Source of the DNA: a virus
Taxonomy: Duplodnaviria; Caudoviricetes
DNA length: 36,865 nucleotides
IMG/VR virus record: IMGVR_UViG_3300033406_000395
Span: 1 to 36,865 of that record
Direction: 5' to 3' (one strand)
Under the pieces are notes generated by a model that had not been told where the DNA came from, searched no databases, and worked only from the letters and a program-made list of their open reading frames with translations. Both the position numbers and the translations under genes were made by a program. Positions 1,155 to 36,865 of the stretch are shown piece after piece (the first letter of the stretch is position 1; the number at the start of each line of letters is the position of its first letter).

Positions 1155-1685
1155 ATGATTATTGCTATTAACCCCGGCCACTATGCTGGCTCTGAAAATT
1201 ATGATTCTGGTGCGGTGAATGAAGCGCTGGGGCTGCGAGAAGTCGACATCAATATCGCGGTCGCCCAAAAGCTGCAGACGATGCTGGAAGATGCCGGGTA
1301 CGAAACCATTTATATTCATGCCGGCGAATTGTACGAGATTACGGATGCATCCAATAATGCTGGCGCCGATTTGTTCGTTAGCATCCATTGTAACAGCGCA
1401 GGATCGTCACAGCCTGTCGGCACGGAAACGTTTTACTGTCAGGGAAGCTGCCATGGCCAATCGTTTGCTACGTGCATTCAGGAAGAAATGGTTAATCTCG
1501 GTTTGACCGACCGCGGCATCAAATGTAACGGGCTGTACGTGACCCGGCATACAGATGCGGTGGCCGTACTGGTCGAGTTAGGATTTTTGTCAAACATGGA
1601 TGAGGGCGCCTTACTGGGCACGGAAGATTTTCAACAAGCCGCCGCAGAAGCGATTTACAGAGGGGTTTGCCAGTATGTTGGATGA
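1155..1685 (+). CDS. N-acetylmuramoyl-L-alanine amidase (Amidase_3), catalytic domain only; probable endolysin
   Basis: INPGH...E, FVSIHCN, LVELGF zinc-amidase motifs; GGAG RBS. Confidence 0.92.
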   Translation: MIIAINPGHYAGSENYDSGAVNEALGLREVDINIAVAQKLQTMLEDAGYETIYIHAGELYEITDASNNAGADLFVSIHCNSAGSSQPVGTETFYCQGSCHGQSFATCIQEEMVNLGLTDRGIKCNGLYVTRHTDAVAVLVELGFLSNMDEGALLGTEDFQQAAAEAIYRGVCQYVG

Positions 1686-7002: not shown

Positions 7003-7022
7003 CAAGCCGGAGGATGATAACC

Positions 7023-7532
7023 ATGTTAACAGCACAACAGCAAGATATGGCTGACCAACACTACCGATTCGCGATTTGGCTGGCCGCAAAATGGTCGAAA
7101 ATCCAAGATACAGTCCCGCGTGAAGAATTGGAGGGCATCGCCTTAATCGAATTGTGCAACGCTGCTGCAGCTTACGATCCAAGCCGCGGCAGCAGCTTTA
7201 CTCATTTTGCGAAGCATCATATCAATCAAATTCTGGCGCGCACAATTAAAGAGACACGGCGCCACAACCGAATCGAAGATCAGGCGGTCCGGAAAGAAGA
7301 AATGACTATCAAGCGTAAAAACGCCGAGTACAACGTCGAAAATAAAGCGCTCGGATCGGAGCTGCAAGATGCTCTTGATCAACTGTCGCCGGAACATCGC
7401 GAAATCCTTGAGGAATGTTATATCGACAAGCTAAGTTACAAAGAAATTGCCTTTAAGCACGGACTGACGGTTAACCAAGTCAAATTCATCTTGCGCTGCG
7501 CCAAACAGCAGGTGCGCCAGAAAATTGCATAG
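7023..7532 (+). CDS. Sigma-70 family RNA polymerase sigma factor (regions 2 and 4 only)
   Basis: YDPSRGSSFTHFA (region 2); LSPEHREIL...LSYKEIA (region 4 HTH). Confidence 0.9.
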   Translation: MLTAQQQDMADQHYRFAIWLAAKWSKIQDTVPREELEGIALIELCNAAAAYDPSRGSSFTHFAKHHINQILARTIKETRRHNRIEDQAVRKEEMTIKRKNAEYNVENKALGSELQDALDQLSPEHREILEECYIDKLSYKEIAFKHGLTVNQVKFILRCAKQQVRQKIA

Positions 7533-8059: not shown

Positions 8060-10618
8060 TTGATTATCGACTTAGCTGCGCCGCCCAAGATTCGGCGTGA
8101 ACCATACCTGGAGTACGAATTTGTCGCCGACTTAGACGATGGAGGCGCCAAAATACTGTTTAATGACCCCACGCTGTCGTACAACCATCTGGTAGCCCTA
8201 GAGATCGGAGATAAGCTATTACGCTTCCAATTGGTTGGGGCGCAGCCTACAACCACCATACCTGGCGACGATTACTTGATATATCCTTCGGTCCTTCCGA
8301 ATATCGATTTGTGCTATGACCTTTATGCCGGCCGCTTAAAAGAGACTTTGGTTATTAACAGCGCCCAGGCGCAGCACGAATTCAGCTTCGATCTCGAAAC
8401 CAACGGCGTGACGGCAAGCTTGCAGCCGGACAACTCGATTGTCTACAAGGACGCCGCGGATAATGTTGTTTGGACCATCAATGCGCCATTCTCCGTCGAT
8501 GCTAACGGAGCCACAGTCGAAACTTACCTGCAGTTTAGCGACGGCCAATACATTGTCGGCGTTTCTCCGGCAACTGACGCCGCTTACCCGATCAGGGTTG
8601 ATCCGACAGTGACGCTACCATCAGCCTATATCTGGAATGCGCAAGGCAATACTGTCACAGTCACGCTTGCCCCATATCGTTTAGCGGTCGGGCGCGCAGA
8701 TGGGTCACGACCAATCCCCTCTTTGACGGTTTATAACCAGCGCAAATATGGGTCGACCTATTACACCGCAACCAACACCACAAACGCATCTACCAAATAT
8801 CAATTTTTTGACAAGGATAACGTAGCGGTGTCCGAACAGTTTGATTTTGCAGTGGATTCTGTCACCTATATAGGTTCTATCTCTGTTCCGTCAAACGCCT
8901 ACACAATTGAATTTGTCGGCGTAGCAAACGGCAGTGCTTCATTCCCTGTTACCAATATCCTGCAACTAAAAACAGCTGAATGCGCCGCCAACGCATCCCA
9001 TTGGGATTTCACCCAAAAGGTGCTGCCGTATTACACGGATACAGCGGTCCACTACAGTGTCCCCAAAGCATCGTTCAACAGCTCCACTAGCGGACAAGCA
9101 GTATCGGAAACCTATGATGCGCCGTTTGGTACGACTTTTACGGCAGGGTCTATTTCCGTATCCAGCGAGAGATCTCCTTATAGCTACATCAAAGACTGCT
9201 ACGTTGACCTATATACCACCGATGGTACGCTATACGGCAGCACCAGTATTCCGTATCCATCAACAGCACCCGGCTCTGGCTATAATACCCGAGGAACGAC
9301 AGTGACAGTGCCGGCAGGCATTGCCCGAATCACTCTTCGCGGCACAAAGTACACGGCTAGCACAGCAATTTATTGGCCAACTGTATATTTTAACGTAGGG
9401 ACTTCCGTGCCGGAATATGGCACGGCCAAGTACGCATTAACGCTGACCAGCGATGTGCAAGACATTCCTATTTCGCCCGGATTCGTAAATTTGCATCCGG
9501 CCAATCCATTTAAAACCTACGTCTGTTATGGAGCCGATGTGCCGGGGAACTATGTTGAGTCATCTACAGTTACGGGCGTAACAGGGGCTGTCGCAAACAT
9601 AAAAGTCTCTCTAACAGCAAATGAAACCGCGCGGCCAACAACTGCGATTAGCAACATCTGTTTGGCTTCGTCGCCTTATACCTCCGCCAATCTCACCGTC
9701 GATTCCAAGCGCTGCATAGCCCAAACCATTAATCTTAACAGCGACACAGTCCGGTCTCTTTTGGCTTCGGCAAATTCCCAAGCCGATACTTCCCGCAGCA
9801 CCGTTTCTGGCCAAACAGCCTATGCAGACAGCATGAGACAAACCCTAGCTGACACTACCGCTTTTGCCGACACCAAACGCCAAGTGTCCTTACTTCATTC
9901 AGCAAATGCGCTTATAGACGCCCTGCGCAAAGTTATTAAAAGTTCGGAACTCATAACGGACACGAAACGGGCGACCGCAAAATATGACTCCGTGACTTCC
10001 GATACTCTGCGCAAAACATTAGCAGCTGTCGCCAACCAGTTTGATATTTCGAGGAATACATTGGCTGCCATTATTTTGTTTACTGACGCAAAAAGGTCGC
10101 TGGCCAAATCCGTTCTTGCTGCAGCCGATACCGCACGCGGATTATCCATTTCAGTTCTCGTCAACGCCGACACGAAGCGCGGCATCGGCGTAGCTTTATC
10201 CGGGTTAGTCACCGTGGATACCGTTCGCGCCGTAATCAAAAACATTTCCGGCAATTATGACAGCACCCGGCGCATTGCAGCGTTCCGCTCAGCTTCGGCA
10301 GATACCAAGAGGCGATTGGCCGCTCCAAATATCAGCACAAGCGATCTCACGCGTCGCATTGGAACCGCAGCACAAACAAACGCAGATACCGGCCGCAAAA
10401 TAAATGCCGTAGTTATCAATCGTTTCGATTCTTCACGCAAACTGAAAGGCGTTGTCCATGCTGTTTATGATACGAAACGGGTATTCGGCACCCCTCTTAT
10501 CCTCATATTCGATACGAAGCGCACAATCAAAAGCGGCATCTGGCCATATATCAAGAGGCACGAATTAAATATCCAAATCCAAAACCGGCGCATAACAATC
10601 TTGTCATTTACAGACTAA
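8060..10618 (+). CDS. Large modular protein: WapA/RHS-type N-terminal-like domain, beta modules, about 20 DxxR repeats
   Basis: GRLKE...WTINAP..DANG...YPIRVDPTV; 14-aa periodic D-T-x-R repeats; TTG start with GGAGGTG. Confidence 0.7.
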   Translation: MIIDLAAPPKIRREPYLEYEFVADLDDGGAKILFNDPTLSYNHLVALEIGDKLLRFQLVGAQPTTTIPGDDYLIYPSVLPNIDLCYDLYAGRLKETLVINSAQAQHEFSFDLETNGVTASLQPDNSIVYKDAADNVVWTINAPFSVDANGATVETYLQFSDGQYIVGVSPATDAAYPIRVDPTVTLPSAYIWNAQGNTVTVTLAPYRLAVGRADGSRPIPSLTVYNQRKYGSTYYTATNTTNASTKYQFFDKDNVAVSEQFDFAVDSVTYIGSISVPSNAYTIEFVGVANGSASFPVTNILQLKTAECAANASHWDFTQKVLPYYTDTAVHYSVPKASFNSSTSGQAVSETYDAPFGTTFTAGSISVSSERSPYSYIKDCYVDLYTTDGTLYGSTSIPYPSTAPGSGYNTRGTTVTVPAGIARITLRGTKYTASTAIYWPTVYFNVGTSVPEYGTAKYALTLTSDVQDIPISPGFVNLHPANPFKTYVCYGADVPGNYVESSTVTGVTGAVANIKVSLTANETARPTTAISNICLASSPYTSANLTVDSKRCIAQTINLNSDTVRSLLASANSQADTSRSTVSGQTAYADSMRQTLADTTAFADTKRQVSLLHSANALIDALRKVIKSSELITDTKRATAKYDSVTSDTLRKTLAAVANQFDISRNTLAAIILFTDAKRSLAKSVLAAADTARGLSISVLVNADTKRGIGVALSGLVTVDTVRAVIKNISGNYDSTRRIAAFRSASADTKRRLAAPNISTSDLTRRIGTAAQTNADTGRKINAVVINRFDSSRKLKGVVHAVYDTKRVFGTPLILIFDTKRTIKSGIWPYIKRHELNIQIQNRRITILSFTD

Positions 10619-10633
10619 CCAGGAGGTGACACC

Positions 10634-13084
10634 ATGGCCTATATCGATTTTACTGAGAACTGCGCCATCCGGCGCGAACAATACGACCAATACGAGTTTC
10701 AAGCTGAACTCGGCGGCACCCTGGTACTGCTAAATGACAGCGCCGAAACCTATAACCATTTGGCCGCAATTAAAGTCGGGGACAAACTGCTCCGCTTCAC
10801 GTTGGCTGAAGCAGCCCCGACCGGCACTATTCTCTTTAACGATAATATTTGCTACCAGGATGTGTTCCCGGACGTTAGCCTTTACTACACGACCGAACCG
10901 GGGCGCTTAAAAGAATATTTTTTGATTAATAGCCAAGACTGCCGGCAATCCTTCACTTTCCTTTTGGAACAAGAAGGCACCACAGCTACCCTAAAGGCAG
11001 ACAACAGCATCGAGTTCCGTGATGCGGCTGACAATCTCGTTTGGACAATCGATGCGCCAACCGCAACGGATGCGGCCGGAAAAGATGTGCCGACCACTAT
11101 AGCTTTTAATGGATCAAGTTATACCATCGGAATTACTCCGGACGCCAATACCCAATTCCCGGTTTGTTTGGATCCGACCGTTAATGTATCTAATACCGTT
11201 ACGGCATGGTATCAAGGCCTCACGTATTCCACTGTCAATCTTGGGCCGAAACGGTATCAAGTGGGGCGCTTGGGATATACCGAACTCCTTACCAGCGTTG
11301 AGTTATTTAGCAACCGCCAATGGAAAGACATAGCCACAGCCGTCACCACAACTGTCTATGACAACAGTAGCCCTTACGTCAAAACATGGTATCAGTGGTA
11401 TGACAAAAATAATGTTCCGCTTGCAGAAAAGGCCGATCTGGTGGTATCAAGTTCGACCAGAAAAGTTTTGCTGACCGTTCCGGCCGATGCTTACTGGCTG
11501 GAACTGACCGGCCAAGTTGCCGGTGTTGCCAGCACGATTCAGGCCTATAGCCAAACCTACCTTAATAGCCTGAATTACGATGATACAAAAACAAGCCAGT
11601 GGGAAATGGGCGACAACGTTAACTTTCCAGGTGGCCAGCGATCGTCGTCTATGAAATCTCACTTAGGTCCAATCCCGGCATCGGCAGACGGGACGCCTTT
11701 TACCCGCACCGTTTATGCTTACCCAGGACAATCATTTTATGCCGGGACGATATATATTTACGCTTATCGGGATTCGAACGGCTATATCGGCGACGCAACA
11801 ATAAACGCATACAATGCTGCAGGAACTCTATTGTCGTCAGTGGCGGTCGATACCAGTACAAACGGGAAAAGCACCAGTTTCCCCGTTCCCGCCAGTACAG
11901 CTCGCATCGAGGCGTCCGGAACGTTCCGGTCTTTAACAGCCAACGCCAGTACGGCTTACATCGCATATAATCTGTTTTACTTGACGTCCCCATCTACAAC
12001 GACCGTGCTTGTATTTCAAGCCGCAAGAGATTATTCTGGCGCCCGCTATGCGCCGGAGTTATCACCTGATATGGGCATTACGCCGCGATGTTTCGTTTCC
12101 ATTAACAGCCAGACTGATTATGTCGAAACAAACAAAATTACCGCCAGCAAAGGCGATATGGTTTACATCAAACTTATGCGCCAATCCGGCGATGCGACTT
12201 CATATAAACTTCAATCAACTTGTCTTGTTTTGATCCCCGAATACTTTGAAGCCCTTATGAATGGCGACCTTGTCCGTAAACTCATATCATCTACAGCCAG
12301 CCTTGCCGACACAAACAGAAGGGCCGCGTGCAATGCTCTGACTAATGGTGATACTCTGCGCCAATCTGTCCGCGCTTTTATCATTAACAGCGATACCATT
12401 CGGCGCGTAACCAAAGGAGTACTCCAGGTTATCCCCGCCGATACGGCTCGGAAAATCACCAAACGTATTGCCGCTTATGCCGACACCAAACGTAAGGCGG
12501 CCGCAAATAATAACTTTGTTTCCGATACCAAACGGCGTATCAAAGCCGCCGTTAATACGCTTAGTGATTCCATCCGTTCTGTCTGCGCCAATACCCTAAG
12601 TTATTTTGATTCCAAGCGGATCGTCGCCATAGCCACATGGGAGTACCAAAAAGACTGCTCCATTCAAATCGACATCGAAGGCGACTCCCAAACAATGTCT
12701 CTTAACCAATCCATAAATGTCAGCGCAATTTTATCGCCATTTAAAAGCGACCAACTAACTACAGGAGGTGGCCCATTCATGCTTATCCAAGGTACCCACG
12801 CGGTCATCAACATCAACGTGTTCCAAACAGCCGAAGAAGCTTTCGATTTGACCGATTGCGCCGTAAAACTCATCATCACGGCAGCTGACACGAAAGCGAA
12901 TTTCCTTGTTCCGGCCGCAATCTTAAACCCGATCGAAGGCAGAGCCTGCGCATACCTTGCACCGGAACACCTGCCAACAGGCGGCATGTACGAATACCAA
13001 GTCCAGGTCATCTTCCCCGACGGAACAGTATCCAAAACAGCAATCAGCGCCTTTTACGTCGCGGACTCGCTGCAGACTGCATAA
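10634..13084 (+). CDS. Paralogous modular protein with 9 DxxR repeats and C-terminal BppU-like adaptor domain
   Basis: N-terminal ~185 aa align with the 8060 protein; C-terminal FDLTDCAVKL...G.Y.YQVQVIFPDG. Confidence 0.7.
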   Translation: MAYIDFTENCAIRREQYDQYEFQAELGGTLVLLNDSAETYNHLAAIKVGDKLLRFTLAEAAPTGTILFNDNICYQDVFPDVSLYYTTEPGRLKEYFLINSQDCRQSFTFLLEQEGTTATLKADNSIEFRDAADNLVWTIDAPTATDAAGKDVPTTIAFNGSSYTIGITPDANTQFPVCLDPTVNVSNTVTAWYQGLTYSTVNLGPKRYQVGRLGYTELLTSVELFSNRQWKDIATAVTTTVYDNSSPYVKTWYQWYDKNNVPLAEKADLVVSSSTRKVLLTVPADAYWLELTGQVAGVASTIQAYSQTYLNSLNYDDTKTSQWEMGDNVNFPGGQRSSSMKSHLGPIPASADGTPFTRTVYAYPGQSFYAGTIYIYAYRDSNGYIGDATINAYNAAGTLLSSVAVDTSTNGKSTSFPVPASTARIEASGTFRSLTANASTAYIAYNLFYLTSPSTTTVLVFQAARDYSGARYAPELSPDMGITPRCFVSINSQTDYVETNKITASKGDMVYIKLMRQSGDATSYKLQSTCLVLIPEYFEALMNGDLVRKLISSTASLADTNRRAACNALTNGDTLRQSVRAFIINSDTIRRVTKGVLQVIPADTARKITKRIAAYADTKRKAAANNNFVSDTKRRIKAAVNTLSDSIRSVCANTLSYFDSKRIVAIATWEYQKDCSIQIDIEGDSQTMSLNQSINVSAILSPFKSDQLTTGGGPFMLIQGTHAVININVFQTAEEAFDLTDCAVKLIITAADTKANFLVPAAILNPIEGRACAYLAPEHLPTGGMYEYQVQVIFPDGTVSKTAISAFYVADSLQTA

Positions 13085-30650: not shown

Positions 30651-33476
30651 TTGGCCATAGACGCAACGAATTTGCAAAAGCAACTGCCGGAGTTCGTCGG
30701 CAACGGCGCTATCCTGTCCGAAGTATTCGCCATGGATGCGGAGACTTTGAACCAAGCCGCGGCTGATCGCCTGGATACCTTCAATCAAATGTTCGTGGAA
30801 ACAGGAACATGGGGATTGAAGTTCTGGGAAGTATTCCTCGGCATTAAAGTGGATGAAACCCAAACGGACGAAGTGCGCCGCCGCATCATTGAAGCCAAAA
30901 TTATCGCCAATTCGCAAGTATTTACGCTGAAACGGTTAGTCGAAGTTTTAAACGCCTACGGCTACGGCGTGGCCAATGTTATTGAAGATGTCGCAAACTA
31001 CCAGATCGAAGTCCAGGTGCCGAATGTCATTAACAGCGTACTCGAAGTCATGGATTTAGCCAGGTACTTGCGCATTGTGTTTCCGGCCCATTTGGCTTTT
31101 AAATTAAGCGCCATCAACCGATCGATGAACGCCATAACCACGATTGATGACATTGGCCCAGTGCTGACTGTCAGATATGATTCCGATGTGTACATACTGG
31201 GGATTCGCGATAATCAACTGTATACGATTACGAAATACCAAGTATTTGAGAATGAGTTTACCAAAGATACTGTAGTCAATATTGCCAGCGCTTATCCTGG
31301 CTACGACTTTGACCCATATAATGCCGCTGCCCATTACAGCGGCAAGGTGTATATTCCCTGCACCAGCAAAATTCCATCTTCCAAGCTGCTGGAAACAATG
31401 GCGCGGAACTTTACCATTAGTGGAGCCGACATTATCCATGACAGCATGATTGGCGGCAAGGTGTTTGCCTCCTGTAACGACGCAGGGGCGACGGTGCGGA
31501 CCAGTAAGCGCCTTGTTCTGACCGACAAGTTTACCGGCGTGAATCGTTACAGCAGCATCACGATGCGGGCATCATCCCAGTTTTTGTTCGAACAGCCGTC
31601 TACCCCCTGGAATGGCGATGTGAATACCGGGCCAACCAATGGTTATGAATTAGAGACCTTTGCGGCGAATCCGACCCTGGTCACTTTGACCTACCGCTAC
31701 TATGACAAAGACGGAAATGCACTAACCGCCGCTACGACGCCGACCTTTCAATCCGTGGCCGGTGGCAATGCCTGGGACGAAAAGTTCGTGTTAAGTAACT
31801 TTCCGTCAAATGCCCATTCGGTCGAGTTCGCCGTGACTGTTCAGAAGCCGGCCCGAACCAATGTCACGTACAACAGCACCACATATAGGCACGTATTAAG
31901 CTGGGTTGATATCTGGCTGGATACCGATGTGGAAAACAAAATTGTCTTGGAAAGTAAATCGTACTACCCATCTTACATTGCTGAGATAAGCATGAGTACG
32001 GGCGTAGCCATATTTCATAACTTGCATACCCTTCTCGGCATTCCGCTAACCAGCCGCTATTATATGTTGTCTGAGAATTTCACCGATCTGGAAGTAAAGC
32101 TGCACGTCGATGAAGCCAACAATTTCCTGTATGCAATTTGCGGCTATGGTTTGGGAATGGAAGCCACCGGCGTTTATGGAGAAGCTGCCAATAATCTGTG
32201 TGTTGCCAAGATTGATAAGGCAACGATGACAGTTGCTGGCAAAAACACTATCACCAGCGGTTCCTTGTACAACCCGAACGAAGATATCATGGTCGATGCA
32301 GGATCATACCCGGCGTATGCCGATGGTGCTATTAATGATTATGCGGCCGGCAATGAGAACCGTGTAGCCAATGTTTATCGGCGCACATCTTATATTGACG
32401 AAGACTATGGCCGCAACTTCTACCTGATCTCAGGCATCAGCGGCGACTACCTTGTGTCATACGCCCGAAAAGTAAAGCATTATACTTATTCCTACTATTG
32501 GGCGATGCCTTCTGATCCGGCCAACTTGCCGAAACGCTATCTCGGTTCGTGCGTCCGTTTGCCAAGTGATTACACCAAGACAACCAAATATCCGGCTATT
32601 AAAATTATGGATTTAAACAACCTGCAGGTACGGGAAATCACAAATGAAGATTTGCTGGAACTCGGCCGCACCAGCGTTTGCACAAGGGACATGACTCGCG
32701 CTCCATTCGGGTCTGAGTGTACAAAGATCAGCGAAAGCAAGGCGTACGGCCTGCCGCTGCAATTCATCGCCTGCCGACCGGCAGTGGTAAACAAGCCGTC
32801 CCTAAATGGATCTGGCGACGACAGCGACTACGGACTCCCATTGGCGCCTTTTTCTCAAACCGGGCTGTTCGAAACGCAGCGAAACGGCAGTAAATTCGCG
32901 ATGGCTGCCGTGGACAAAGAAACGCTAGCCGTTAACGCAAGCTTCTCGTACGTGTACAACAACTTTCAGACCGTCAATTTCGATCCGGCAAAAGACAAGG
33001 TGCCGGTCTACCCGACGAATATCATGCCAGACCTGGCGATGTGGCTGGAAACGTCTTTCAATATGAGTCTGGAAGGCAACCCGGCAATCACATCAGCCAC
33101 CGTTCCCGAAACGCCCGTTTTATATACACAGTACCCAGCAGGCTATGTTGGATCGCTGTTTTATCCATATAAGAAGTCCGGCATGGTTTATAGCGAACCA
33201 TGGGACGGCAGTATCATCACTTCGGTTGCCCTGTATGAAACGAATGGTGGTGCGCAGATAAAACGCTATATTGATTACTCGGGTTACTTCATGAATCACG
33301 CCAGCCGTGATGAATACGGCCTCGGAAACGCAGTGTACGCCACGTACGACAACACGGTGCTGACCACGGCATACAATGGGCACACTGTCGCCAACGCCGA
33401 TACGCATATGGGCAAGAAACTCGCCCGCTTTGTGAAGACCCCGTATAACAGTTATATGCTATTCAACTATGTCTAA
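30651..33476 (+). CDS. XkdU/YmfQ-like baseplate domain fused to a long receptor-binding-like region
   Basis: Q.FVET.TWGL.FWE..LGI...RR..I.AK...PAHLAF in the first ~155 aa, then ~790 aa Tyr/Thr/Asn-rich beta sequence. Confidence 0.75.
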   Translation: MAIDATNLQKQLPEFVGNGAILSEVFAMDAETLNQAAADRLDTFNQMFVETGTWGLKFWEVFLGIKVDETQTDEVRRRIIEAKIIANSQVFTLKRLVEVLNAYGYGVANVIEDVANYQIEVQVPNVINSVLEVMDLARYLRIVFPAHLAFKLSAINRSMNAITTIDDIGPVLTVRYDSDVYILGIRDNQLYTITKYQVFENEFTKDTVVNIASAYPGYDFDPYNAAAHYSGKVYIPCTSKIPSSKLLETMARNFTISGADIIHDSMIGGKVFASCNDAGATVRTSKRLVLTDKFTGVNRYSSITMRASSQFLFEQPSTPWNGDVNTGPTNGYELETFAANPTLVTLTYRYYDKDGNALTAATTPTFQSVAGGNAWDEKFVLSNFPSNAHSVEFAVTVQKPARTNVTYNSTTYRHVLSWVDIWLDTDVENKIVLESKSYYPSYIAEISMSTGVAIFHNLHTLLGIPLTSRYYMLSENFTDLEVKLHVDEANNFLYAICGYGLGMEATGVYGEAANNLCVAKIDKATMTVAGKNTITSGSLYNPNEDIMVDAGSYPAYADGAINDYAAGNENRVANVYRRTSYIDEDYGRNFYLISGISGDYLVSYARKVKHYTYSYYWAMPSDPANLPKRYLGSCVRLPSDYTKTTKYPAIKIMDLNNLQVREITNEDLLELGRTSVCTRDMTRAPFGSECTKISESKAYGLPLQFIACRPAVVNKPSLNGSGDDSDYGLPLAPFSQTGLFETQRNGSKFAMAAVDKETLAVNASFSYVYNNFQTVNFDPAKDKVPVYPTNIMPDLAMWLETSFNMSLEGNPAITSATVPETPVLYTQYPAGYVGSLFYPYKKSGMVYSEPWDGSIITSVALYETNGGAQIKRYIDYSGYFMNHASRDEYGLGNAVYATYDNTVLTTAYNGHTVANADTHMGKKLARFVKTPYNSYMLFNYV

Positions 33477-33490
33477 GGAGGAATTGCCTT

Positions 33491-33799
33491 ATGGTATTTT
33501 TAACGCACGGTGAAGTGGTGGACGGCAAAGCCAAAGTGCTGGCCGTCATCTACAAGACGGATGAGTTGTCCGAGGAAATGAAAGCGGCCGGGGTATTTGT
33601 GGAATCCATTCCTGACCCGGCCGTTAACCAAGGTATCCCGATGCTGATGGTGAATCTGGCCACAATGGAACTGTGGTATGAGTACGCACCGATCCCTGAA
33701 GCACCGGTTTATCCCACGACAAAAGAAGGCCAGATGCAAAAAGAAATTGACGACCTGAAGCTGTTAATCGCTGAATTGGTTGCCGGAGGTGCTGTCTGA
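33491..33799 (+). CDS. Putative tail fibre assembly/accessory protein
   Basis: GVFVESIP.P...LWYEY plus short coiled coil; follows fibre gene. Confidence 0.65.
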   Translation: MVFLTHGEVVDGKAKVLAVIYKTDELSEEMKAAGVFVESIPDPAVNQGIPMLMVNLATMELWYEYAPIPEAPVYPTTKEGQMQKEIDDLKLLIAELVAGGAV

Positions 33800-33951
33800 T
33801 GACTGAACTCAAATTAAAACTACTGACGGATGCCGTGCGCATCCACATGAAGCGCGACAAACTGACTTTGGAAGAAGCGCTGGCTAAATACCCTGCTTTG
33901 ATCGAAACAGAAAAGGCAGCCATTGCGGCCGCCATCAACGGAGGTAACTAA
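33799..33951 (+). CDS. Small 50-aa protein (absent from ORF track)
   Basis: TGATG stop/start overlap, GGAGGTG RBS; MTELKLKLLTDAVRIHMKRDKLTLEEALAKYPAL... Confidence 0.72.
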   Translation: MTELKLKLLTDAVRIHMKRDKLTLEEALAKYPALIETEKAAIAAAINGGN

Positions 33952-33953
33952 CG

Positions 33954-34205
33954 ATGGCTAGAGAGAGACTTTTTCAGATCAAGAAATGGATCACAGTGTT
34001 CTTTGCTTGTGTGATTATGATTCAGGCTGGCTTTGTCTGCTATGCGTCTGCCGTGCCAGTCAGCAGCGACATGGCGCTTCAGCTGAGCCGAATAGAACGA
34101 CTGGGACAAATGCTTGTCGCGGGTCTTACTTTGAATTTGGTGGTTGCCCTAGTGGCTGCATACGGATTCAATGTCAGCATCGTCAATAGTTACCGATGTA
34201 AATAA
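33954..34205 (+). CDS. Small two-hydrophobic-segment membrane protein (lysis region)
   Basis: GGAGGT RBS; two hydrophobic stretches. Confidence 0.65.
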   Translation: MARERLFQIKKWITVFFACVIMIQAGFVCYASAVPVSSDMALQLSRIERLGQMLVAGLTLNLVVALVAAYGFNVSIVNSYRCK

Positions 34206-34226
34206 TCTTTATCAGGTGGTGAAGGT

Positions 34227-34592
34227 ATGGGCATCTTCTTCGATACGTTTGTATTACAACTCATACTGGTAGCCTTCAGCGGATCGCTTTTGGGAGAGGC
34301 GGTCCGCGAGGTAAATAACAATACCCCCATTTCCTTCAGCCATTTCATTGTCGAATTTATGGCCGGGGGCTTCATGGCTTTGATGATCGCGATTGTATTG
34401 AAGGTGATGGTCATAAAAGACGAACCGGTTCTTATTTTACCGTTCACGGGTTTCTTAGCTTTTGCCGGCCGTAAGAAATCGGCTGCGTTGGTTGAACGAA
34501 TGTTAATGACGATGCTGTCTAAGGGAGGGGCTATTAATGATGACAAGCCAATTCTTACAGACGATAAAGCAGAGGGTACTAACTCTGAATAA
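34227..34592 (+). CDS. Holin-like membrane protein
   Basis: Three hydrophobic segments, charged C-terminus, position after tail genes. Confidence 0.62.
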   Translation: MGIFFDTFVLQLILVAFSGSLLGEAVREVNNNTPISFSHFIVEFMAGGFMALMIAIVLKVMVIKDEPVLILPFTGFLAFAGRKKSAALVERMLMTMLSKGGAINDDKPILTDDKAEGTNSE

Positions 34593-35127
34593 GAAACAAC
34601 AGCTGATATTGGGGACAATAATTTTGTTGATTATTATGCTTGCGGTGTTTTTTACGAGTCGTAACCAAAATAACACGGTGGTTATGCAACCGGTGGACGT
34701 AGCAAACCCGGTGCAGGTGGCCGCTCAGCTTGATATATCAACAGCGAAAGCAAAAGATATCGTCAAAGCGATTGAGAAGGCCGCAGAGAATCCGCCAACC
34801 ACAAGTTGGACCGTAGAGGCGACAGATACGAAAGCGGCCGCTGAAACCGTCGTGAAGCAAATCGAAACAAATAAGGCGCCACCGATGCCGTCTGCTGATA
34901 AGACGGTGGTGACGCCAAGGGAAACTAAAGTGGATGTTTACCGGATCGATATGGATGCCGATTGGGAAGTCAGCATAGGTTATGGCAACCATGATGGGCA
35001 TAGCTACGTGCCGGTTGAGATTCAGCGAAACTACAACAAGCATAAGGCAGTCGCGGCCGAGGTGCATATGGATATGGGCCTGAAGAAAGTCCAAGGCTAT
35101 GAAGTGAAGCATGTTTGGCGATTCTAG
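34537..35127 (+). CDS. Membrane-anchored protein with C-terminal amphipathic beta-strands; spanin candidate
   Basis: TM helix LILGTIILLIIMLAVFF; ends GYEVKHVWRF; overlaps holin-like gene. Confidence 0.65.
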   Translation: MMTSQFLQTIKQRVLTLNKKQQLILGTIILLIIMLAVFFTSRNQNNTVVMQPVDVANPVQVAAQLDISTAKAKDIVKAIEKAAENPPTTSWTVEATDTKAAAETVVKQIETNKAPPMPSADKTVVTPRETKVDVYRIDMDADWEVSIGYGNHDGHSYVPVEIQRNYNKHKAVAAEVHMDMGLKKVQGYEVKHVWRF

Positions 35128-35483: not shown

Positions 35484-35720
35484 ACCATTTACCTCCTTAA
35501 ATATTGTCCCATTTAAGTATATACTTGGTTATATTGGATTGTCCTGCTAAAATAACGATGATGGAAAATTTTTAACAACTACTAAAGATCCATATTTTCT
35601 TCTAATGTAGGTCATAGGAAGTGATGGCCGCCCGGCTAAAGGGCGGCTTTGTTGTTCCTCAAAATGTGGCATTTTGGGGAATTGCTTAGATACCGATGGC
35701 GGCGGAGCTTGATTGTTTCG

Positions 35721-35803: not shown

Positions 35804-36214
35804 ATGGCTAAGGTGGAGAAGGTGGAGAAGATGGGGAAGGCCGAAATTGTTTGGGCAGGGTTACAACTGGTACCTTGGGACAAAGTTATTGATAAGGCGC
35901 CCGATATATTACGTGAGGCCCGATGTATGCTTCCAAGCTTTAAGTGGAAAAATAAATCAAATGCTCCACAGAAGTTAACAGTAGAAATCTTATCCGAAAA
36001 TATAGTTCAACTTGAAAACGCCTTGGAAGAACAGGCAACGCTGATTGAATCGATGACGGAACAAAGCATAGGAATGATAGATAAGATCAAGGAATTGGAA
36101 GAAGCCAACCAGAAACTATTGGTTGAACAAGGTGCGGTGAAAAACAAGTTAAATGTTGCATTGGGGCTATCGCTGATCTCCATAGTAATAGCGGCTGTAG
36201 CAATATTACGATAG
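35804..36214 (+). CDS. Coiled-coil protein with C-terminal TM anchor
   Basis: GAGGAG RBS; heptad pattern; VALGLSLISIVIAAVAIL tail. Confidence 0.72.
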   Translation: MAKVEKVEKMGKAEIVWAGLQLVPWDKVIDKAPDILREARCMLPSFKWKNKSNAPQKLTVEILSENIVQLENALEEQATLIESMTEQSIGMIDKIKELEEANQKLLVEQGAVKNKLNVALGLSLISIVIAAVAILR

Positions 36215-36247
36215 TGATGTTTTCAAAAAGCATTGGGGGTGGCTACT

Positions 36248-36865
36248 GTGCTTCCAGCACGAGTGAGTCAAAAGCCAATTATCCAATCAAATAAAAAGGC
36301 GTTGGTACTATCAGCAGCTACCACAGGAGACCTTCCCAAGTATTATAATGCAAGGGAAATGAAGATGATCCTGTGCGATGGGCTGCGTGACAAGCAATAC
36401 AACGCCTTTTTTTTATGCCTGTTCCTTTGGCGGACCGGTTGCCGCATTTCGGAAGCTTTGAATGTGACCGTCGCCGATCTTGATCTAACTAACAAAGTTG
36501 TGCGGGTTCACACATTGAAGCGTAAAGGCCATGTTCGCTTCATTCCGCTCCAAACGGAGTTTATCGGGGAGATTGCGATTTGGATTAACCAGCAGCGTTT
36601 GGGACGCGCTGACAAACTGTTCGACATCGATCGTAAGACTGGATACAACTGGGTAGCCTATGCCTGTAAAAACGCTTTTACCGGCGACGAAAGAAATCAT
36701 CCGCATACCTTCCGCCATAGCTTTGCTGTTAACTGTCTGACGCAAGGTGTACCGATCACAACAGTGCAGAATTGGCTCGGACATGCTGACCTGGGGAAGA
36801 CACTGATCTATACTCAGTTGGTAGCTGCGGATACTAGAGTATTTATGGATGGAATAAAATTTTAG
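36248..36865 (+). CDS. Short tyrosine recombinase (catalytic domain only; resolvase/invertase-like)
   Basis: WRTGCRISE, TLKR, HTFRH, LGH, TLIY; start 36233 or 36248. Confidence 0.93.
   Translation: MLPARVSQKPIIQSNKKALVLSAATTGDLPKYYNAREMKMILCDGLRDKQYNAFFLCLFLWRTGCRISEALNVTVADLDLTNKVVRVHTLKRKGHVRFIPLQTEFIGEIAIWINQQRLGRADKLFDIDRKTGYNWVAYACKNAFTGDERNHPHTFRHSFAVNCLTQGVPITTVQNWLGHADLGKTLIYTQLVAADTRVFMDGIKF

Follow-up and report, generated by a model that had tools for sequence, protein, structure and literature searches.

The final same-strand gene of a prophage late operon encodes a 196-residue protein that we judge, on balance, to be a lipid-free, inverted single-protein spanin, apparently an undescribed candidate for a third spanin architecture. 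The protein is predicted to be anchored in both membranes, through an N-terminal helix at one end and a four-stranded, barrel-type C terminus at the other. To our knowledge, all described spanins depend on an outer-membrane lipoprotein. We analysed the whole 36,865-nucleotide stretch of DNA (the window), a provirus record that is 78% complete and has a late operon of the contractile-tail type, in which tail-fibre genes are followed by an 83-residue membrane protein, a holin-like gene and the candidate. The relevant features are as follows.

1155..1685, + strand: phage-type Amidase_3 endolysin, displaced from the cassette; the sole endolysin outside the tail module
33954..34205, + strand: 83-residue protein with two hydrophobic segments and no family, conserved in a relative (L245)
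34227..34592, + strand: holin-like gene, 121 residues, at least two hydrophobic helices; PHROG 785 (holin), E 2.2e-4
34521..34528, + strand: ribosome-binding site AAGGGAGG, 8 nt 5' of the candidate start and within the 3' end of the holin-like gene
34537..35127, + strand: candidate barrel-anchored spanin, 196 residues; PHROG 10797 (unknown function), no Pfam family
34603..34659, + strand: single hydrophobic helix, residues 23-41, hydropathy 2.76 (helix 19-43 in the AlphaFold model)
34660..34962, + strand: predicted periplasmic spacer, residues 42-142, a folded alpha/beta domain in the AlphaFold model
34963..35124, + strand: four amphipathic strands, residues 143-196, Phe-terminated; predicted part of an oligomeric outer-membrane barrel
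35626..35648, + strand: terminator-like hairpin, 0.5 kb 3' of the candidate

A preliminary description of this DNA had placed the protein at 33954..35127, a span that does contain it but covers three open reading frames, of which it is the last. The anatomy given there largely holds: the reading frame overlaps the holin-like gene by exactly 56 nt, and its product has a basic N terminus, one hydrophobic helix, no cysteine and a final Phe. The supposed Ala/Thr/Pro-rich linker is indeed 35% Ala/Thr/Pro, but the model folds it with confidence into an alpha/beta domain, which is conserved and contributes two further strands. The relative at L245 (68% identity) also has the 56-nt overlap, and the same three genes stand there behind an unrelated tail fibre. 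The holin call for 34227-34592 is weak, and the 83-residue product is a possible lysis accessory. Terminator-like hairpins occur at 5 sites compared with 3.0 in shuffles, a weak signal.

The candidate matches PHROG 10797 over most of its length (residues 19-181, E 2.6e-29), and no Pfam family matches it. Profile searching yielded 285 representatives at 50% identity; when 7,995 candidates were scored, 1,437 relatives clustered at 90% were recovered; among the 120 relatives listed, two carry a name, 'hypothetical protein'. There were no relatives among the 50,697 phages of INPHARED, and none was found in the PLSDB plasmids. Across 105 aligned members, the terminal residue is W, F or Y in 96, G148 and G187 are nearly invariant, and a loose, unconserved lipobox occurs in four. 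The spacer measures 88-140 residues in the family (median 111) and 69-113 in subfamily B, which keeps the helix and the barrel and replaces the spacer with an unrelated, beta-rich one. Helix 23-41 is likely to be an inner-membrane anchor that stays uncleaved, as an AxA motif lies close to its end in only 6 of the 105 members, cleavage being judged by motif count only.

Family members sit in lysis cassettes. We used 113 of 127 hits, which include kin, for a count of gene context, dropping 14 with less than 1.5 kb upstream. An endolysin was found within 1 kb at 99 of the 113 loci and within 200 nt at 84, and in 84 of the 113 it lay directly upstream of the family gene. These endolysins belong to five unrelated families (Amidase_2, 35 loci; GH25, 35; Amidase_3, 19; VgrG3-like muramidase, 8; glucosaminidase, 2). 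When a smaller set of endolysin seeds was used, 20 of the 30 clusters formed at 70% identity qualified. The siting in a lysis cassette proposed earlier is thus borne out, but the usual neighbour is an endolysin, not a holin as had been supposed. No lipoprotein spanin accompanies the protein, again as proposed: a strict lipobox scan that detects three of three known spanins (lambda Rz1, T1 gp11 and T7 gp18.7) returned no lipobox reading frame in any of the 113 cassettes, and its two loose hits were an amidase and a holin-like start. Against the spanin reading, 14 of the 113 loci have no recognised endolysin within 1 kb, and neither does the window.

The window's displaced amidase is nearest to the endolysins that flank the family elsewhere (E 1e-39) and 37% identical to an amidase of the Negativicutes genome G034; we infer that it serves this prophage. 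Tyrosine recombinases occupy both window ends (1-960 and 36233-36865), the amidase being displaced beside the left one. A lipobox scan of all + frames found no lipoprotein on the + strand of this 78% complete record, and no Rz/Rz1 pair is evident elsewhere in the window, as the preliminary description had stated. We rejected the reading frame at 35804-36214 as an Rz (PHROG 'Rz-like', E 0.0013): it has a C-terminal helix and no other, is situated beyond the terminator-like site and is without a lipoprotein partner. In the Atlas, DUF6808 was the nearest cluster with a name, and it had no match within the window. Apart from the tail module, the region 8060-13084 carries two large unannotated proteins (852 and 816 residues) and a 123-residue gene before the terminase; these may be another set of fibre or appendage genes, controlled by the sigma factor at 7014-7532.

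A second phage architecture carries the family beside terminase genes. In T7-like phages of type A, the order holin-GH25-gene-TerS-TerL is found in most of the 17 loci with a T7-type TerL; in those with subfamily B, the order is endolysin-TerS-TerL-small two-helix gene-gene, and TerL adjoins 41 of 42 loci or, after clustering at 70%, 14 of 15 clusters. Such phages with T7-type terminases are integrated in Negativicutes and also occur in viral contigs (L150-L157, L159, L161, L173-L241); in several of them the candidate is followed by an excisionase-like gene. Other residents of the cassettes include Tad2-like anti-defence genes (L072:1833-2369, L093:4504-4851), an acidic coiled-coil protein of no family with a C-terminal helix between endolysin and candidate (L005:562-837, L018:1168-1536, L021:4491-4820), and, in the endolysin slot itself, an unclassified protein with no Pfam hit that probably represents an unnamed endolysin family (L018:597-1178, L058:3967-4614, L140:227-877, L310:1360-1950).

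Because small membrane genes recur beside the family, the candidate might be one half of a two-component system, with the 83-residue protein, a coiled-coil protein or the 60-residue two-helix gene of T7-like phages as its partner. We regard this as very improbable: no partner family is shared among loci, the coiled-coil family stands beside only 7 of 127 hits, the endolysin is most often directly upstream, and the candidate already has two anchors of its own. Gene context also bears on a moron reading, in which the helix would be removed as a signal peptide, leaving a small outer-membrane protein or a mini trimeric autotransporter that serves superinfection exclusion or adhesion and has no part in lysis. 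Such genes are often found at prophage ends beside lysis genes, lambda bor being an example; the window has no adjacent endolysin; orphan copies exist; and the C terminus resembles YadA-type anchors. However, the scarcity of AxA motifs, the close association, on a common strand, with endolysins of five families in two phage architectures unrelated to each other, the lack of a promoter-like site in 33400-34537, and the strand, rather than helix, that precedes the barrel in the candidate's subfamily make a moron improbable. The orphan copies, outside phage context, are at L158:4650-5285 and L162:4887-5318, with one directly upstream of ftsA-ftsZ.

An AlphaFold2 run on 105 sequences (pLDDT 94.5, pTM 0.78) predicted that a membrane helix is followed by a folded spacer of the alpha/beta type and then, at 143-194, by four antiparallel strands, a sheet of the barrel type that had been expected from the sequence. 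Its even strand number, amphipathic strands and terminal aromatic residue are those of barrels that are BamA substrates. Throughout the 105-sequence alignment, the 18 outward positions have a hydrophobic fraction of 0.81 and the 17 inward ones a fraction of 0.21; none of 100,000 permutations was as extreme, a descriptive figure and not a test, as inward and outward were assigned from the same alignment. Charged residues make up 27% of the inward-facing strand positions.

Mean-field covariation (378 sequences, about 154 effective) recovered the three intra-chain strand pairings and, in addition, an antiparallel register between strands 1 and 4 (i+j=339, z 1.26, 9 pairs; true neighbours, 1.3-1.65), which was present in both sequence subtypes and in 40 of 40 subsamples. 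Non-neighbouring strands gave z of 0.84 and 0.72 on 5 pairs, and the maximum of the shuffled null, a lenient one, was 0.28. As a basis for a shear number, the registers were ambiguous by two residues for each strand pair. As these edge strands would be unable to pair within one chain, the covariation and the model suggest that the four strands form an oligomeric barrel closed between chains. Complex prediction with three copies of residues 42-196 scored 0.28 and 0.13 against a mark of 0.42, and we counted it neither way.

Foldseek returned no PDB match at E<=1e-3 for the candidate and none of significance for subfamily B, and the best sequence match to a solved structure had E 0.14. In the VIA fold search (best Z 5.8), soluble sheets scored as well as barrels. 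These results favour a sheet that is soluble in the periplasm and tethered to the inner membrane, such as a regulator of holin or endolysin; yet the strict alternation leaves a hydrophobic face that one chain has no means of burying, the terminal aromatic residue is kept in 96 of 105 members, and the family is almost confined to diderm hosts, so that we consider a soluble sheet highly unlikely. For the last 59 residues, YadA anchors were the nearest named models (TM 0.66-0.71, under the tool's bar), and Hia 2gr8 was the nearest named structure (probability 0.99 but E 0.18, rmsd 3.9). Like the YadA/Hia anchor (PF03895), the candidate has four C-terminal strands per chain and an aromatic end. 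Unlike it, the candidate has no head or stalk, bulky polar residues face inward and the membrane anchor is probably uncleaved; moreover, a strand (132-137) precedes the sheet, where subfamily B has a helix. YadA_anchor gave no Pfam hit for the candidate and was not among the 25 families listed for 105 members. Eight-stranded barrels overlay the strands more tightly (OmpA 3nb3, rmsd 1.5 over 51), and the barrel may therefore be a dimer.

Carriage of the family is almost confined to the Negativicutes, which account for 44 of the 48 named GTDB loci. We drew even samples from the class (301 genomes) and from the phylum Bacillota as a whole (401 genomes). In the former, 94 of 301 matched at E<=1e-3 and 55 at E<=1e-15. 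In the latter, 7 of 401 matched at E<=1e-3, the two strong matches being to genomes that the class sample contains as well, whereas the five weak ones do not cover the barrel; LpxC was detected in 87 of the 401. The preliminary description had expected the family only in phages of diderm Bacillota and had counted homologues common in monoderm phages as evidence against its proposal. None of the 314 LpxC-negative genomes of the phylum sample gave a strong match (E<=1e-15), though Phage_holin_4_1 is present in 85 of them. The distribution is narrower than foreseen, however, with no strong match among the 73 LpxC-positive phylum-sample genomes outside the class sample either.

The remaining four of the 48 loci lie in three metagenome-assembled genomes (MAGs) without LpxC, LpxB or Omp85. 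Compared with prophage loci of Veillonella or Acidaminococcus, L043 is 96% identical, L039 88% and L003 83%, and L028 is 74% identical over 950 nt. Carriage by such genomes counts against the spanin reading, but with loci 83-96% identical to Negativicutes prophage DNA the three MAGs are probably misbinned. The window's own contig (L244) runs into genes 86-92% identical in DNA to G034, which is LpxC-positive and in which a LolA match was not found; no tRNA was found in L244. The host of this prophage is therefore a diderm, as previously assumed.

The envelope of these hosts gives a context for a lipid-free bridge. In the accessible text of three papers, Negativicutes have no Lol pathway, leaving room for a lipoprotein route of unknown nature (PMC5491611, PMC13018214, PMC10665443), and Halanaerobiaceae are described as having acquired Lol (PMC11784454, available sections). 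Lipoprotein spanins should thus not work in Negativicutes. In Veillonella parvula, according to the sections available, the periplasm measures 24 nm, and MlaD joins an inner-membrane helix and an outer-membrane barrel in one chain, with support from fractionation (PMC10665443). By that precedent, a helix-plus-barrel chain can span a Veillonella-type envelope. MlaD differs from the candidate, however, in that it transports lipids, has an MCE domain, forms a complete barrel of ten strands from each chain and is unrelated in sequence.

In the mechanism we propose, Sec would insert the N-terminal helix as a type II inner-membrane anchor, and BamA would assemble the four C-terminal strands with those of other copies into an outer-membrane barrel. 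The bridge would be entrapped in the wall until holin and endolysin remove it; it would then collapse, and the two membranes would fuse or tear. The fusion step is taken by analogy to T1 gp11, with inverted topology. A 111-residue spacer would span 24 nm only if largely extended, whereas the modelled spacer is folded, which counts against a spanin; as a periplasm of this width requires extension, the folded model may represent a collapsed state.

An outer-membrane lysis factor that acts without fusion is an unlikely explanation, though one that several observations suit. A tethered barrel could form pores, stall BamA or compete with the OmpM tether. Cassette position and host range fit such a factor equally well, the folded spacer looks short for 24 nm, and the charged inward residues are channel-like. 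Nevertheless, the covariation suggests a completed barrel and not a stalled substrate, spacers of 69-140 residues across unrelated folds look like a ruler, and a pore acting before wall breakdown would be expected to kill early.

Among known spanins, the proposed bridge comes closest to T1 gp11 as described in the available text of Kongari 2018 (PMC6139136): each is one protein encoded by the last gene of a lysis cassette, with an anchor at each end and no periplasmic cysteine. The periplasmic part measures about 85-110 residues in the two, with about 85 in gp11, so that both meet the same length problem against 24 nm. The candidate differs in having no N-terminal outer-membrane lipoprotein signal (0 Cys) and four strands in place of a C-terminal transmembrane helix, and Pfam and PHROG scans showed no sequence similarity between the two. 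As with u-spanins, one gene closes the lysis cassette and there is no Rz/Rz1 pair (99 of 113 loci near an endolysin; lipobox in 0 of 113). If at all, the candidate would act like a u-spanin; lacking both a lipobox and a C-terminal helix, it falls outside that class.

The N-terminal type II anchor is Rz-like, and the slot after the endolysin or by the terminases recalls lambda Rz/Rz1 and T7 gp18.5/18.7; T7 encodes its Rz/Rz1 between TerS and TerL, and the family adjoins terminases in T7-like phages. In contrast to Rz/Rz1, the spacer is alpha/beta with no coiled coil, and there is no embedded, overlapping or adjacent lipoprotein partner. Disruptin phiKT gp28 likewise disrupts the outer membrane at lysis without a lipoprotein, but it is a 56-residue cationic amphipathic peptide and not a two-anchor bridge (10.1101/515445, accessible text).

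How widely the slot is filled by this family was assessed from holins. Among 251 Negativicutes genomes, we examined the best 80 of 114 listed holin places and kept the 55 that had an endolysin and no less than 1.8 kb of sequence downstream; of the rest, 17 lacked a recognised endolysin and 8 had flanks that were too short. A four-strand member was present in 24 of the 55 cassettes, about ten of the 24 being close kin; five seeds of the divergent profiles were themselves taken from the holin-anchored loci. Another 11 cassettes encoded a protein with a signal-like helix, a coiled coil and a C-terminal helix; two had a coiled coil followed by strands ending in Phe, two a beta spacer with a C-terminal helix, and 16 no two-anchor protein. 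Coiled-coil and barrel types occurred together at none of the 55 loci (Fisher p 5e-5; loci not independent). With 24 of 55 cassettes carrying it and other proteins holding the slot elsewhere, the family is one of several spanin-slot occupants and not universal, and this, with the 16 cassettes that have no two-anchor protein, counts against our reading.

The coiled-coil family, a second post-endolysin family in Negativicutes prophages, combines a signal-like helix, a long coiled coil and a C-terminal hydrophobic helix with no conserved lipobox (L271:1962-2462, L280, L287, L300, L308, L310:2084-2527, L312, L313, L319, L320, L325), and is a possible second lipid-free spanin type. At L310:3175-3471, 0.65 kb after the coiled-coil candidate, a lone same-strand lipobox reading frame may encode a lipoprotein partner. 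Hybrids take two forms, a coiled coil ending in beta-strands and Phe (L268:136-588, - strand; L269:2460-2912) and a beta spacer ending in a helix (L321/L322:1892-2455), indicating that the spacer and the outer anchor are exchanged in modular fashion. Cassettes with no two-anchor protein often have small amphipathic helical proteins after the endolysin (PHROG 18996 and a basic neighbour of 57-73 residues; L273:2136-2620, L277, L278, L284, L294:2043-2330, L304:2642-2815), which are candidates for disruptin-like factors.

We see an even chance that phages of the Negativicutes have evolved a lipid-free spanin toolkit, used by siphoviral, myoviral and T7-like members, a modular class of inner-membrane-anchored bridges with an outer end that is either a BamA-inserted oligomeric four-strand barrel, as in this family with its at least three interchangeable spacers, or a C-terminal helix. 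These phages are described, in the accessible text of Rands 2019 (10.1101/606087), as descending from phages of single-membrane Firmicutes; there, the lysis modules comprise holin and lysin only, and the word 'spanin' does not occur. Neither 'Firmicutes', 'barrel' nor 'Veillonella' occurs in the accessible text of Kongari 2018 (PMC6139136). The literature searched, largely open-access articles and abstracts, contained no description of the candidate's family, and the papers found do not address how Negativicutes phages cross the outer membrane. The family offers a concrete answer to that question, in a group whose member Veillonella is a tractable commensal, and can serve as a marker for assigning metagenomic phages to Negativicutes hosts. 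If our reading is correct, the family would add a third architecture to the known spanins and, with it, a membrane fusogen that is anchored by a barrel.
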